NCBI GenBank assembly: GCA_964649265.1
Contig: CAZYPB010000002.1
Span: 1 to 46,037, forward strand
DNA: 46,037 nucleotides
DNA from: Candidatus Micrarchaeota archaeon
GTDB taxonomy: Archaea; Micrarchaeota; Micrarchaeia; Burarchaeales; JAKAKT01
Direction of reading: 5' to 3'
The notes beneath the pieces are model-generated. The model was not told the origin of the DNA, did not search any database, and saw only the letters and a list, made by a program, of their open reading frames with translations. Within the stretch, counting starts at the first letter, position 1. Every line of letters begins with the position of its first letter. The position numbers and the translations under genes are program-made. Positions 33,320 to 37,571 of this stretch are shown here, piece by piece.

Positions 33320-33583
33320 ATGTTGCTTGAGGTAAAAGTAACTCCTAATGCAAAGAACTTCCGCCTTTTTTTTAAGGATGGCTGGAGGGCATCAGTTATC
33401 TCCCCGCCCGATAAGGGAAAAGCAAACAAAGAGCTAAAGAAACAGCTCTCGGAAATCTTTTCCTGCCAGGTTCAGGTTATAAGGGGCGCATCAAGCAGAC
33501 ATAAGGTGCTGGAGGTGGACCTTGATGAAGATGAGTTCAAAAAAAGATCGGAAACTTATGTCAAGGCTCAAGATCTTCCGTAG
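33320..33583 (+). CDS. DUF167 (YggU-like) protein
   Basis: 87 aa. LEVKVTPNAK...GKANKELKKQLSEIF...VQVIRGASSRHKVLEV matches the DUF167 pattern. Confidence 0.8.
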   Translation: MLLEVKVTPNAKNFRLFFKDGWRASVISPPDKGKANKELKKQLSEIFSCQVQVIRGASSRHKVLEVDLDEDEFKKRSETYVKAQDLP

Positions 33584-33923
33584 GGCACTTGAGGACATGG
33601 AAGGTAAGCCCATAATAGTTGAAGGAAAAAAGGACATGAATGCACTCAGGAGGTGCGGAATAAAAGAGAGGATAATCGTGCTCAAAGGAAGACCTGACGA
33701 CATATGTCGCTCACTCAGAGATAATGATGAAGCAGTGATCCTTACAGATTTCGATAAAAGGGGAGAGGAATTATCAGCAATACTCTCAGATAACCTGAGA
33801 TCATACGGAACACGTCCCAATATAGAATGTAGGAGGAGGCTGAAGTATTCGGTCGGAGTGAGGGTTTTCCAGGAACTGGACAAGAGAGTTGCAGAGTTTG
33901 AAAACGAAATCCGAACAAGGTGA
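33558..33923 (+). CDS. Small stand-alone Toprim-domain protein (COG1658-like)
   Basis: Toprim glutamate (PIIVEGKKDMNAL) and DxD (VILTDFDKRGEEL). I prefer the ATG at 33558, which overlaps the DUF167 3' end by 26 nt. The ORF track starts at 33522. Confidence 0.7.
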   Translation: MSRLKIFRRALEDMEGKPIIVEGKKDMNALRRCGIKERIIVLKGRPDDICRSLRDNDEAVILTDFDKRGEELSAILSDNLRSYGTRPNIECRRRLKYSVGVRVFQELDKRVAEFENEIRTR

Positions 33924-33927
33924 TTAT

Positions 33928-35157
33928 ATGGGAAAGACATACATAGATACTGTAAAATATTTGGTTTACGCAAATGTTGAGATCGGAGGACTTGTTGAGA
34001 AACCCGATGTTGTGGGCGCTATATTTGGTCAAACAGAGGGGCTTCTCGGCGATGAACTAGATCTAAGGGAACTGCAGAAAAACGGAAGAATAGGCAGAAT
34101 AGAAGTAGACCTTAAGGGAAAAGGAGGAAAAAGCATTGGAAAGATTCTCCTCCCGTCAAGTCTGGATATGGTAGAAACAAGCATACTTGCTGCTGCTCTT
34201 GAGACAGTTGACAGAGTAGGACCATGTGATGCTAAGATTGCAGTTGAGAAAATAGAGGACACAAGGAATCTAAAGAGGAAGACAGTTGTTGACAGGGCAA
34301 AGAACCTGCTCAAGAATCTGCTTACAAATGAGATACCTGAGAGCAAGGAGATATCCGATATAGTGAGACAGGAGGTTAAGATAGCAGAGATTAGTACATT
34401 CGGATCCGAGAAGCTTCCGTGCGGTCCACATATAGCTTCATCCGAATCAATAGTTATTGTTGAGGGAAGAGCCGATGTGCTTAATCTACTGAAGAATGAC
34501 ATAAACAATGTCATTGCAGTTGGCGGAGCAAATGTCCCGAAAGCAATAGTCGGTCTCTCAAGAGAGAAAGAGGTAACCCTGTTCCTTGATGGAGATAGGG
34601 GCGGAGACATAATCCTAAGAGAGCTCTCGGAAAATGTTGAGATCGATTTCGTGACCCGGGCACCACATGGGAGAGAGGTTGAGGAGCTATCGCGAAAAGA
34701 GATAATAAAGTCTCTAAGAAGCAGGATACCATACGAGCAGATTAATGGTTCAAGGCCAAGAAAGGACCAGCCTTCCATGAACCAGATATCCGACAGGAAC
34801 AAGAGGTTAAATGGGAATGGAAGAAAGCCTGAACCGATTGCAGAGAAGCCAAAGGCATCAAACGATGTCCCAACCAGTCCGCCCGATGCTCTTCTAAAGA
34901 GCCTTGATGAACTGGAGAACACCCTGAGGGCTAGGATATACGGTAAGGACATGAACCTTGTTGAGGAACTGCAGGTAAGGGATCTGATAAAGAAGATGGG
35001 TGAATTAAAAGAAACCCATGCAGTGGTCTTCGATGGGATAATAACCCAGAGACTTGCAGATCTTGCTGACAAGAAAGGAACCAAGATGCTCATTGGAGTA
35101 AGAAGCGGGAACCTATACAAAAGACCGGATAGGATGCTTATCTACACAAAGAAGTAG
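33928..35157 (+). CDS. dnaG: Archaeal DnaG-type primase / exosome-associated Toprim protein
   Basis: MGKTYIDTVKYLVYANVEIGGLVEKPDVVGAIFGQTEGLLG is the conserved archaeal DnaG N-terminus. Toprim motifs IVIVEGRADVLNL and LFLDGDRGGD. The ATG at 33928 follows SD AAGGTGA (33917-33923). Confidence 0.9.
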   Translation: MGKTYIDTVKYLVYANVEIGGLVEKPDVVGAIFGQTEGLLGDELDLRELQKNGRIGRIEVDLKGKGGKSIGKILLPSSLDMVETSILAAALETVDRVGPCDAKIAVEKIEDTRNLKRKTVVDRAKNLLKNLLTNEIPESKEISDIVRQEVKIAEISTFGSEKLPCGPHIASSESIVIVEGRADVLNLLKNDINNVIAVGGANVPKAIVGLSREKEVTLFLDGDRGGDIILRELSENVEIDFVTRAPHGREVEELSRKEIIKSLRSRIPYEQINGSRPRKDQPSMNQISDRNKRLNGNGRKPEPIAEKPKASNDVPTSPPDALLKSLDELENTLRARIYGKDMNLVEELQVRDLIKKMGELKETHAVVFDGIITQRLADLADKKGTKMLIGVRSGNLYKRPDRMLIYTKK

Positions 35158-35205: not shown

Positions 35206-36630
35206 ATGCAATTTAAAACAACCAAAGATGTAGTGCTGTCCAAAGACCCTTTAGATGCAATAATAGGTCAGGATGAGGTTGTTAAGATTGCGCGCGCAGT
35301 TTCAAAACAAAAGAGAAACCTATTACTTGTAGGCCCACCAGGAACTGGAAAGAGCATGATTGCCCAGGCAATAGCCTACTTACTTCCAAGACCAAATCAA
35401 GAGATATCCATACTGCAGAATTTCGATAATCCTGAGAGGCCGATTGTTGAGATAAGGGACAGGACAAAGATAGAGGGACAGGTCAAGAAAAAGAAGGCAT
35501 CAGGGAAGATCCTTAGTCCATCACAGGTGCCTGTTTTTGTTGCAGAGAGGCTCGGATTCAGATGCAGAAGATGCGGCAATATCTCCGATTATAAGATACA
35601 GGTTTGCTCATCATGCGGTGCTGACAAATACAGGAAAGCCTCAACACCATTCGATGATTTGCTCTTTGGTTTCCAGAGCGAGGTTCTTGAGGAGAGAGTG
35701 CACACAACCCGATCTTTTCCAGACGGAAGAGAGGAGATAATGGTCTATGAGAGAACAAAGGAGGGCAAGATCGTATCATATGATCAGCGTTCACTTAAGG
35801 ATCTGGAAAAAGGACATACCCGAAGACCAAGGAAGATAATTGTTCCACTGAACAGGAAACCATTTGTTCATGCAACTGGGGCAAGTGAGACAGAACTTCT
35901 TGGAGACATAAAACACGATCCATATGGTGGGCACCCCGAGGCAGGTATTGCTCCATATCAGCGAGTTGTACCTGGAGCAGTACATGAAGCACATGAAGGA
36001 GTTTTATTCGTAGACGAATTATCTACACTTGGGTATTTACAGCGATATCTTCTAACAGCAATGCAGGAGAAGCGCTTTTCAATAGTGGGGAGAAACCCAT
36101 CAAGCACAGGTGCTGCTGTAAAAGTAGAGAACGTCCCATGCGATTTCATTCTCATAGGCGCAATAAACACCAATGATATGCCTAACCTACTTCCGCCTCT
36201 GAGGTCCAGAATAACGGGCAATGGTTATGAGGTCCTTGTAAATACCACGATGCCCGACACTGAGAAGAACAGGGAATCCGTTATTCAGTTCATTTCTCAG
36301 GAAATAATAAAGGATGGCAAGATACCCCATGCAGACTATGAGGCAGTTCAGCTTGTAATTGCAGAATCTCGAAAACGGGCAAGAGAAATAGACAATGTTG
36401 CAGGACTAACACTTAGATTAAGGGATCTCTCTGGCATTGTTAAGCTTGCAGGAGACATGGCGTGCATAGAGGGATCAGAGACAATAACTGCAGAGTACAT
36501 AAAGGCTGCGATTAAGAAAGGAAGGACAATAGAGCAACAGATTAATGATAAATACGGAAGTTGGTACAAGGCAGAGATGAGCGATTACCATTATAAACAA
36601 AACAGTTCAGATAATAAAGAAGTCGGATAA
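35206..36630 (+). CDS. LonB-like AAA+ ATPase lacking the membrane anchor and the protease domain, with zinc-ribbon insert
   Basis: Walker A GPPGTGKS, PFVHATGASETELLGDIKHDPYGG, Walker B GVLFVDEL, LLTAMQEKRFSIVG, RSRITGNGYEV, TLRLRDLSGIVKLAGD. All are LonB-like from memory. The ORF ends where the Lon protease domain would begin. CxxC-x10-CxxC lies at 35563-35616. Confidence 0.8.
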   Translation: MQFKTTKDVVLSKDPLDAIIGQDEVVKIARAVSKQKRNLLLVGPPGTGKSMIAQAIAYLLPRPNQEISILQNFDNPERPIVEIRDRTKIEGQVKKKKASGKILSPSQVPVFVAERLGFRCRRCGNISDYKIQVCSSCGADKYRKASTPFDDLLFGFQSEVLEERVHTTRSFPDGREEIMVYERTKEGKIVSYDQRSLKDLEKGHTRRPRKIIVPLNRKPFVHATGASETELLGDIKHDPYGGHPEAGIAPYQRVVPGAVHEAHEGVLFVDELSTLGYLQRYLLTAMQEKRFSIVGRNPSSTGAAVKVENVPCDFILIGAINTNDMPNLLPPLRSRITGNGYEVLVNTTMPDTEKNRESVIQFISQEIIKDGKIPHADYEAVQLVIAESRKRAREIDNVAGLTLRLRDLSGIVKLAGDMACIEGSETITAEYIKAAIKKGRTIEQQINDKYGSWYKAEMSDYHYKQNSSDNKEVG

Positions 36631-36646
36631 GGGGCCCGTAGTCGAG

Positions 36647-36677
36647 TGTCCTTCTGTTATCCCAGGAAGACCGACAA
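36647..36677 (+). other. Non-canonical tRNA intron in the D loop (between nt 15 and 16), 31 nt, HBh'-type bulge-helix-bulge
   Basis: A 4-bp helix GTCG (36641-44) : CGAC (36672-75) is followed on each strand by a 3-nt bulge (AGT 36645-47; AAT 36676-78). The h' stem is 36648-56 : 36663-71 (9 bp, one mismatch, one GU). Cleavage 2 nt into each bulge restores the AGUGGUUUA D loop. Confidence 0.75.
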
Positions 36678-36700
36678 TGGTTTAAGACGCCACCCTTACA

Positions 36701-36778
36701 AATTGCTCCGGCAGGCGAAACTGCCTTTCAGACATCATGGACGCTGAGAGGTATCGGAACCCGCCGGAGGGTTCTGAT
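36701..36778 (+). other. tRNA intron at the canonical 37/38 position, 78 nt (junction ambiguous by 1-2 nt because of flanking A residues)
   Basis: It must be removed to join loop CTTACA to A-GGTGG. It contains a 7-bp internal helix (36706-12 : 36763-69) and an alternative GGCAG/CTGCC hairpin (36710-25). I could not draw a strict BHB by eye. Confidence 0.65.
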
Positions 36779-36817
36779 AGGTGGAGATCCGGTGTTCGAT
36801 TCACCGCGGGCCCACTG

Positions 36818-36823: not shown

Positions 36824-36881
36824 CAACAACGTTAAAACACTATTTATTAATACTTAAGACGAATGTACTTTGGTGAACCTT

Positions 36882-37571
36882 ATGTCTAAAGAGGATGTAG
36901 ACTCGATGCTAATAACTGCCGCTCTTGGAGAGGAGCTCCAGATGGTTGAGACATATTCAAAGGTTAGAGATGCATCAAATGATCCAGTTGTAAAGAAGAC
37001 ACTTGATATACTAATAAATGATAGCAGAAAGCACGCAGTAATCATATCAGATCTTGTTCTAGACATCTCATCCAAATATTCATGGGAACTTGATGATATA
37101 GACAAGAAAGTCGCCCAACAGATATCCGATAGCACGCAGTTTACACTTTCAAAAGAGACAACAGAATGGTACACAAAAAAGGTGCAGGCAATAGCACTGA
37201 AGGCAAGCGAAGAGCCATTGAATGTAAGAGAGGCAAACGACCAAGCAGTTGTATCTGCCCTTGAGATGTTTATAGGTTCCGAGAGGACAGCATTCGCAAT
37301 ATACAAGGTTCTTATTTCGAAGGTAGCAGAAGAGACAAAACAGGCCATAGAAAAGATAATGGATGATGAGATAAGGCATGCAAACATGCTTAATAGACTA
37401 ATCTGGCAGGTAAAATCAGGAGAGAAGGAACCCGAGGCAGATGCAATTAAAAAAGAGGAACCATTCAACATCCTGTATTGCACAGTGTGTATGAAGGTTT
37501 ATGGAGATGACCTAAAGAAATGCAATGCCTGTGGGGGCCAAATAAAGGAACTACTTTCAGACAAGAAATAA
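36882..37571 (+). CDS. Ferritin-like/rubrerythrin-like four-helix-bundle protein with C-terminal zinc ribbon
   Basis: Two-fold internal repeat. The second half has E...DEIRH (ExxH); the first half has only E...DSRKH. C-terminal CTVC...CNAC. ATG at 36882; TATA-like TTTATTAATA at 36843-36852. The opposite-strand 209-aa ORF is Ser-rich shadow. Confidence 0.55.
   Translation: MSKEDVDSMLITAALGEELQMVETYSKVRDASNDPVVKKTLDILINDSRKHAVIISDLVLDISSKYSWELDDIDKKVAQQISDSTQFTLSKETTEWYTKKVQAIALKASEEPLNVREANDQAVVSALEMFIGSERTAFAIYKVLISKVAEETKQAIEKIMDDEIRHANMLNRLIWQVKSGEKEPEADAIKKEEPFNILYCTVCMKVYGDDLKKCNACGGQIKELLSDKK

Follow-up and report, generated by a model that had tools for sequence, protein, structure and literature searches.

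Lon proteases are known as enzymes in which one polypeptide chain carries both the AAA+ motor and the protease, and a recent classification describes all Lons as being composed of ATPase and protease domains (PMC9569914). In the archaeal LonB, the chain additionally contains a membrane anchor of two transmembrane helices, which is inserted between the motor's Walker A motif and its Walker B motif. Here we describe a LonB-like AAA+ ATPase of 474 amino acids, which is encoded on a stretch of 46,037 nucleotides from a Candidatus Micrarchaeota archaeon (assembly GCA_964649265.1, contig CAZYPB010000002.1, positions 1 to 46,037 of the forward strand; this whole stretch is called the window in the following). 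The protein has the motor module of LonB, lacks the protease domain and carries a soluble domain with a four-cysteine (Cys4) zinc ribbon at the site of the membrane anchor. A soluble, protease-less, Lon-derived ATPase of this kind had been proposed in an earlier note on the window, and this proposal agrees well with the LonB profile and structure matches, the lack of transmembrane helices and the conserved cysteines reported below. We consider it probable, albeit with clear reservations, that the gene is intact and belongs to a family of long standing in archaea, i.e. that it codes for a LonB paralogue that kept the AAA+ motor only and would act as a soluble hexameric unfoldase, either on its own or together with a separate protease.

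Domain structure of the LonB-like ATPase

All LonB ATPase motifs that the earlier note had quoted were found in the translated open reading frame (ORF), in the order given there (Table 1). The NCBIfam profile of LonB, TIGR00764, matched the ORF with 351.7 bits, i.e. below its cut-off of 516.6, and the match was limited to the profile positions ~1-95 and 170-407 of 608, which correspond to the N-terminal helix plus Walker A and to the part from Walker B through the lid, respectively. Since the match ends at position ~407 of 608, the protease part of LonB has no counterpart in the ORF, and a Pfam profile search did not find the Ser-Lys protease domain Lon_C (PF05362) in the 474-amino-acid protein, as had been anticipated. 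The closest solved structure is the LonB of T. onnurineus (3k1j, expectation value (E) 3e-81), which was aligned in two stretches with the query residues ~80-215 skipped, and the AAA+ cores of the ATPase and of canonical LonB are ~45-50% identical. The AlphaFold2 (AF2) model of the monomer, calculated with a 24-sequence alignment, reached a mean predicted local distance difference test (pLDDT) value of 75.9; its best fold matches were LonB and then LonC, followed by ComM, RuvBL1/2 and RuvB at template-modelling (TM) scores of ~0.3.

Conservation was evaluated in this 24-sequence alignment and in a family set of 78 sequences. The sensor-1 residue N321 as well as R335 and R406 are invariant in 78/78 sequences, and 77 of the 78 have Arg at R333 and R404. 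Together with the Walker A Lys and the Walker B Asp-Glu pair, the protein consequently possesses every residue that was looked for in an active AAA+ ATPase, including sensor-1 Asn, arginine finger and sensor-2 Arg. Moreover, H237, D238, P239, Y240 and G241 of pore-loop 1 are invariant in the 24-sequence alignment, so that the aromatic residue expected of a polypeptide-translocating AAA+ unfoldase is provided by Y240. In LonB, Phe216 is reportedly the pore aromatic, a statement that Cha et al. 2010 are said to have made. By homology, the protein would assemble into a hexameric ring. This ring should hydrolyse ATP, because all nucleotide-binding and hydrolysis residues are kept, and it may be expected to pull a polypeptide through its central pore, because the pore-loop-1 tyrosine is kept as well.

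The statement of the earlier note that a membrane anchor is missing was examined by a hydropathy scan. The maximal Kyte-Doolittle mean over 19 residues did not exceed 1.25 anywhere in the protein and was as low as 0.71 in the insert, compared to 2.56, with two segments, in the N-terminal half of the canonical LonB from the same genome. Hence, neither the protein nor its insert contains a transmembrane helix, and the two-helix anchor of archaeal LonB is not found in the insert.

The zinc-ribbon insert

The insert comprises ~140 amino acids (142 residues) and is hydrophilic with a net charge of +10, which bears out the claim that a hydrophilic segment occupies the position of the LonB membrane hairpin. 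It must be mentioned that the cysteine pattern had been given as CRRCG-x10-CSSCG; the four cysteines and their location were right, but the spacer consists of nine residues (NISDYKIQV), not ten. Counted from C123, the pattern reads CRRC-x10-CSSC, with the two CxxC knuckles on a pair of beta hairpins. The four cysteines are invariant in 78/78 aligned members. They are also kept in distant full-length members with 36-43% identity, which are labelled Aciduliprofundum boonei, Anstonellales, Thorarchaeota and Korarchaeota. A structure prediction for the insert, as suggested in the earlier note, yielded a model (AF2 of the insert alone, 43 sequences, pLDDT 83.4), in which the Cys4 zinc ribbon and, after it, a beta unit of three strands lie between two helices; across the zinc-ribbon part, pLDDT values of 92-95 were obtained. 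The Pfam search of the insert gave only sub-threshold hits to DUF7130 and to the zinc ribbon of TiaS. From its sequence pattern and predicted fold, the Cys4 unit is a zinc ribbon that is predicted to bind zinc. In analogy to the N-domain of ClpX, six such domains might form a crown on the substrate-entry face of the ring, where they could select substrates, adaptors or nucleic-acid-bound clients.

Two distant members, P0132 and P0135, retain the zinc ribbon, while their Walker B motif is degenerate (GVLYISDL and GALYLPDL, respectively) and their pore loop is altered. In appearance, these two are side branches of the family that have lost catalytic activity.

Table 1. Position of the LonB-like ATPase gene, its sequence features, adjacent elements and the separate LonB pieces of the same genome
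Feature	Position	Strand	Remarks
LonB-like AAA+ ATPase gene	35206..36630	+	ATG start, 474 amino acids; no transmembrane helix, no protease domain (ORF listing)
Walker A GPPGTGKS, residues 43-50	35332..35355	+	From translation; K49 invariant in 78/78 sequences
Soluble insert, residues 75-216	35428..35853	+	At the site of the LonB membrane-anchor domain; skipped by the LonB profile and PDB alignments
Cys4 zinc ribbon CRRCG-x9-CSSC (C120, C123, C134, C137)	35563..35616	+	From translation; zinc binding predicted
Pore-loop-1 core HDPYGG, residues 237-242	35914..35931	+	Tyr240 aligned with Phe of LonB HDPF (3k1j alignment)
Walker B GVLFVDEL, residues 265-272	35998..36021	+	D270 and E271 invariant in 78/78
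C-terminal tail KEVG	36616..36627	+	Micrarchaeota-type E-[VIT]-[AGS] in place of the aromatic tail
TATA-like TTATAAA in coding tail	36591..36597	+	35-41 nucleotides before the tRNA 5' end
tRNA-Val(TAC)	36632..36814	+	D-loop intron and anticodon-loop intron; ARAGORN after intron removal
Archaeal dnaG (Toprim)	33889..35157	+	Directly upstream, 48-nucleotide gap to the ATPase ATG; Toprim_4 E 1.6e-10
LonB N-terminal half	contig C4, L004:1492-2571		359-amino-acid ORF; Walker A, two transmembrane helices, pore loop to HDPLQ
LonB C-terminal part	contig C7, L001:1390-2286		298-amino-acid ORF; ~40 residues ending LLVKN, then SGGLGTP, Walker B, lid

Distribution and phylogeny of the family

Searches at E<=1e-5 returned 4,903 homologous database proteins, so that the ORF is no chance product. 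The best 120 of these 4,903 matches are 448-513 amino acids long, share 54-77% identity over the full length and are mostly labelled Candidatus Micrarchaeota. When the 142 residues of the insert were used as the sole query, one copy per genome was found in 157 of 301 Micrarchaeota genomes; two large Micrarchaeota families were devoid of it (0/74 and 0/54), and nearly all other families were positive. The same query detected 86 positive genomes among the 201 of the phylum that holds the Methanomassiliicoccaceae and Aciduliprofundum (the Thermoplasmatota side). In both groups, the homologues with this insert have 450-510 amino acids, and the 474-amino-acid protein is likewise homologous in one stretch over its full length including the insert, within the ~440-530 amino acids that delimit the family. 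The short zinc-ribbon form is thus conserved across genomes, a comparison with relatives that the earlier note had proposed. Its being single-copy and widespread speaks in favour of the explanation preferred here.

In a quick maximum-likelihood tree, the short forms are monophyletic with respect to canonical LonB (Shimodaira-Hasegawa-like approximate likelihood ratio test, SH-aLRT, 99). The Thor- and Kor-labelled sequences branch deep, and the Thermoplasmatota clade (98) adjoins a Micrarchaeota subclade. Because the backbone of the tree is weak, we draw no conclusion on gene transfer. Neither Pfam nor NCBIfam contains a model for this family or its insert, and our literature searches for a protease-less LonB paralogue found no description. 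The database entries of its members carry the names 'ATP-binding protein' and 'AAA family ATPase' or the erroneous one 'Lon protease'.

Since the ORF ends abruptly 1 nucleotide before a tRNA gene, one could think of a LonB gene in decay or cut short, whose 3' half disappeared on arrival of the tRNA gene, and the earlier note had kept a truncated gene as its alternative. That abrupt end is the only observation pointing in this direction. The same length and end recur in hundreds of genomes, whether or not a tRNA lies downstream, the C-terminal tripeptide is conserved, and the catalytic residues are invariant. The short form keeps its full length in other genomes and is monophyletic, canonical LonB exists elsewhere in the genome, and no protease remnant occurs downstream of the ORF, which the tRNA follows at once; we therefore conclude that the gene is not truncated. 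A decaying LonB is refuted by these conservation data and can be regarded as practically out of the question.

Canonical LonB and other Lon proteins in the same genome

The genome assembly (1.24 Mb, 101 contigs, 87% complete) does contain a canonical LonB, which settles the question, raised in the earlier note, of a LonB elsewhere in the genome: it is present as two apparently intein-bearing halves on the contigs C4 and C7, not linked to the gene of the 474-amino-acid ATPase (Table 1). The ORF on C4 continues for ~115 extra residues after HDPLQ, TTPEH among them, and the break between HDPLQ and SGGLGTP lies inside pore-loop 1. When the extra pieces from C4 and C7 were joined, they matched the M. 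jannaschii KlbA mini-intein 2jmz (E 5.6e-6, PDB sequence search); the Pfam search of the split halves detected no intein. Both half genes are situated mid-contig beside unrelated genes. As far as can be judged from these sequences, the LonB of this genome looks like a naturally split protein with a trans-splicing intein. A run of N in contig C7 (L001:2150-2270) interrupts the frame between the LonB lid and the protease domain, and the apparent frameshift at this position is probably an assembly gap rather than a real split.

The motor and the membrane LonB might still cooperate, for instance in mixed rings or with the short form as a soluble competitor ring that uses the LonB protease in trans. 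Full-length LonB above the cut-off co-occurs with the short form in four other genomes, so that both paralogues were present in every genome checked for both, and the similarity of their AAA+ cores would also suit such a co-assembly. However, the genes are unlinked, the two families are cleanly apart in the tree, and we know of no precedent for such an arrangement. Hence, we rate co-assembly with LonB, or its regulation, as very unlikely.

Matches to Lon_C in this genome are restricted to the contigs C7 and C40. The protein on C40 (L007:1198-2874, 558 amino acids) combines a signal peptide, an ATPase-less Lon_C (S16) domain, a long helical region and a C-terminal transmembrane helix, and these predicted features mark it as a Lon-type peptidase that is secreted or anchored at the surface. 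It was considered as a protease acting in trans and dropped, because its signal peptide and transmembrane helix place it outside the cell or anchored there and make it an unlikely partner of a cytoplasmic ATPase.

The conserved pairing with dnaG

The gene directly upstream of the ATPase gene in the window is dnaG, on the same strand. Archaeal DnaG is itself still under discussion as a subunit of the exosome and as a possible primase. The true start of dnaG is probably the ATG at 33928 (MGKTYIDTVKY), as homologues start with M-x-KTYID. Among 79 loci from species-representative genomes, mostly of Micrarchaeota, dnaG is the commonest conserved neighbour (21 loci); in the Thermoplasmata and DHVE2 loci among them, the two genes overlap or are separated by 2-3 nucleotides. 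Of 20 further Thermoplasmatota-side loci, 19 have dnaG as the next gene upstream in the same orientation. Furthermore, we evaluated 62 metagenome loci recruited with deep-branching members, in which dnaG was found upstream in 40 by a strict criterion and, by a loose count in which only the conserved N-terminal half of DnaG aligned, in 16 more; Thor-like contigs are among the loci with upstream dnaG. Because the order recurs in Thermoplasmatota-side and in metagenome loci including Thor-like ones, the pairing appears to be old. Judged from gene order, it is ancient, has been partly eroded within the Micrarchaeota and is retained in the window. The link to dnaG that the earlier note had suspected is therefore backed by a gene order that is strongly conserved across phyla.

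An exosome loss in this archaeon was also considered. Of 151 genomes of the phylum, 150 possess the RNase PH genes, and only this 87% complete assembly is without them; this points to assembly incompleteness, and the idea was dropped.

The main rival explanation is a nucleic-acid motor or DnaG accessory factor, according to which the AAA+ ring would work together with DnaG on DNA or RNA in a primosome- or degradosome-like complex and the ribbon would supply a zinc module. Such a zinc-binding module is present in bacterial DnaG and absent from archaeal DnaG, and the DnaG of the window is indeed without a CxxC motif. Besides the gene order across phyla, the basic residues flanking the Cys4 ribbon and the positive net charge of the insert are compatible with this proposal, and the DNA-acting ComM helicase, RuvBL1/2 and RuvB are the next fold matches after LonB and LonC. 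However, these matches reflect the shared AAA+ core, while the nearest relatives by far are protein-degrading Lon enzymes. The invariant aromatic residue in pore-loop 1 is typical of polypeptide translocases, and orthologues end with a tail of the proteasome-docking type; both speak against a nucleic-acid motor. Taken together, we think that a nucleic-acid motor working with DnaG is quite improbable.

Other neighbours were less informative. XPF-like ERCC4-HhH, Hjc, NMD3, thioredoxin and winged-helix proteins were tried as functional links and rejected, since their presence near the gene is clade-specific in Micrarchaeota; only the thioredoxin-like and winged-helix genes abut the ATPase gene, in a few loci, and the rest are several genes off. 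Just upstream of dnaG, a stand-alone Toprim protein of 133 amino acids is encoded at 33522-33923, which overlaps the annotated TTG start of dnaG. In several Micrarchaeota loci, the gene of a CBS protein is followed, in this order, by that of the small Toprim protein, by dnaG and by the LonB-like gene.

C-terminal tails and the 20S proteasome

The extreme C-terminus differs between the lineages. Proteins from the Thermoplasmatota side have Tyr or Phe at the penultimate position in 20 of 20 cases (GYQ, GYE, MFH, MFN, MYN, AYQ), and the same is true for 65 of 75 proteins in the metagenome set, where the Thor-like ones end with YFF. Because of this aromatic tail in orthologues, docking on the 20S proteasome is suggested, and in the lineages concerned unfolded substrates might be handed to 20S. 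In 69 right-aligned tails from Micrarchaeota, position -3 is Glu in 57 (3.27 bits, the top value of the last 24 positions), followed by Thr, Val or Ile at -2 and by Ala, Gly or Ser at -1. The Micrarchaeota thus replaced the aromatic HbYX-like tail (hydrophobic-Tyr/Phe-any) by the conserved tripeptide E-[VIT]-[AGS] in most copies; a few Micrarchaeota copies kept the aromatic residue (KEYG, RSFG).

A further alternative is that the protein is a proteasomal ATPase in this Micrarchaeota archaeon, too, whose C-termini dock on the 20S alpha ring and feed unfolded substrates into it. The genes for 20S alpha and beta are present in the genome (contigs C34 and C5), and no PAN above the cut-off was found in this 87% complete assembly. 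The G-Y-x or M-F-x ends of orthologues would fit such a function; because a few Micrarchaeota copies keep the aromatic residue, KEVG resembles the same tail with Y exchanged for V, and within the last 24 residues conservation is highest at the very C-terminus. However, the penultimate residue is Val here, and peptides without the HbYX motif gave no stimulation of 20S (PMC3493965). Moreover, this genome already possesses three Cdc48-like proteins, one of which ends with SMFR. Therefore, we doubt strongly that the window protein serves as a proteasomal ATPase in this archaeon.

The situation may be different in lineages with aromatic tails. Thermoplasmata lack PAN and have been credited with Cdc48 as single proteasomal ATPase (PMC3493965). 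If the aromatic-tailed members of the LonB-like family indeed dock on 20S, Thermoplasmata and others would possess two proteasomal ATPases, the second being of a novel type. The copy ending with KEVG, in turn, shows that the tail is replaceable by another conserved motif and provides a natural contrast to the aromatic tails.

The downstream tRNA gene and further neighbours

The stop codon of the ATPase gene (TAA, 36628-36630) stands 1 nucleotide before the tRNA-Val gene, whose acceptor stem GGGCCCG begins at 36632, just as the earlier note had it. At default settings, ARAGORN found no tRNA after the ATPase gene and neither did Rfam; ARAGORN calls tRNA-Val(TAC) once the D-loop insert is taken out. 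In the closest relative (L011), the same tRNA directly follows the stop codon and is without the 32-nucleotide D-loop intron. The TATA-like TTATAAA in the coding tail was correctly located before, and the relative has ATATAAA at the same alignment columns. With its right spacing and a TATA-like element kept in the relative, TTATAAA is a possible promoter of the tRNA gene.

Between the tRNA and an MscS gene, the window encodes a rubrerythrin- or ferritin-like protein (36870-37571) that ends with a CxxC-x8-CxxC zinc ribbon. The relative has no such gene, and there the MscS gene lies directly after the tRNA.

Possible function

We return to the soluble, motor-only unfoldase as the preferred explanation. 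Having no protease of its own, the protein would either unfold or remodel its substrates by itself or pass them on to a separate protease. DnaG or DnaG-containing complexes would be the most likely client or partner, because the gene is ancestrally coupled with dnaG and still adjacent to it in the window. In this respect, the old pairing offers a testable handle on archaeal DnaG.

Several observations weigh against this explanation and should be named together. For every member of the family, the activity is derived from sequence and models. The 474-amino-acid protein ends with K-E-V-G and thus lacks a C-terminal HbYX motif; without the aromatic residue, canonical gate opening is doubtful for it. 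When the insert by itself was compared with the folds in the PDB, no match was significant (best match RadD, E 0.03, TM score 0.19), and since the insert has no recognisable fold relative, any role assigned to it is a guess. A basic zinc-ribbon insert encoded beside dnaG would suit a nucleic-acid role just as well. Furthermore, dnaG is found immediately upstream on the same strand in only 13 of the 79 loci mentioned above, which means that the adjacency is lost in most Micrarchaeota loci. Finally, the 48-nucleotide spacer between dnaG and the ATPase gene contains a T-rich TATA-like stretch ~25 nucleotides before the ATG, and because of this stretch the ATPase gene may have its own promoter, apart from dnaG.

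Going one step further, one may speculate that the family represents a regulatory ATPase of archaea belonging to a third class, derived from Lon, which forms a physical link between DnaG, and hence RNA or DNA transactions, and the unfolding and degradation of proteins. The ribbon crown would then recognise DnaG or nucleic-acid-bound clients, and the swap of the tail in Micrarchaeota would point to a new docking partner. We consider this extended scenario unlikely, although worth stating.

Comparison with known systems

The bacterial AAA+ unfoldase ClpX has a Cys4 zinc-binding N-domain and docks on the peptidase ClpP. It offers a working analogy: a hexameric ring that unfolds proteins, has no protease, carries a zinc-binding domain for substrates or adaptors at its entry side and relies on a separate peptidase. 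However, ClpX belongs to another AAA+ lineage, and no match to it stood out in the Pfam and PDB sequence searches of the 474-amino-acid protein. In the LonB-like family, the zinc module is located between Walker A and Walker B and not at the N-terminus, and the IGF loops are missing.

The DNA-acting AAA+ rings RuvBL1/RuvBL2 and ComM are weak fold matches. RuvBL resembles the LonB-like ATPase in architecture, as its Walker A and B motifs are likewise set apart by an inserted folded domain. Yet, identities of 13-16% accompany the low TM scores, and the insert of the 474-amino-acid ATPase shows no match to the oligonucleotide/oligosaccharide-binding (OB) fold.

With the proteasomal ATPases PAN, Cdc48/VAT and AMA, which have HbYX C-termini (PMC3493965), the orthologues from Thermoplasmatota and Thor-like contigs share the penultimate Tyr or Phe. 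In contrast to these, the family is of Lon type rather than classical AAA; docking is putative for the family as a whole, and the protein from the window has lost the aromatic residue.

The closest parallels are found among the Lons themselves. LonC of Meiothermus taiwanensis (4fw9), the second-best fold match, is likewise a Lon derivative with one half lost or disabled. In LonC, the protease is retained and the ATPase is dead, whereas the LonB-like family has dispensed with the protease and retains an ATPase that is predicted to be alive. Archaeal LonB (T. onnurineus, 3k1j, 4zpx; TIGR00764; MEROPS S16.005) is the best match in sequence and fold. The AAA+ modules are colinear and share the long pore-loop-1 GD[VI][KR]HDP-aromatic, Walker B, LLTAMQ, RSRI-G-GYE and the lid. 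The family differs from LonB by the zinc-ribbon domain instead of the two-helix anchor, by the missing Ser-Lys protease, by its score below the LonB cut-off and by its position in a separate clade. Hence, a widespread archaeal lineage that kept only the motor and has a zinc domain in place of the membrane anchor widens the established picture of Lon.

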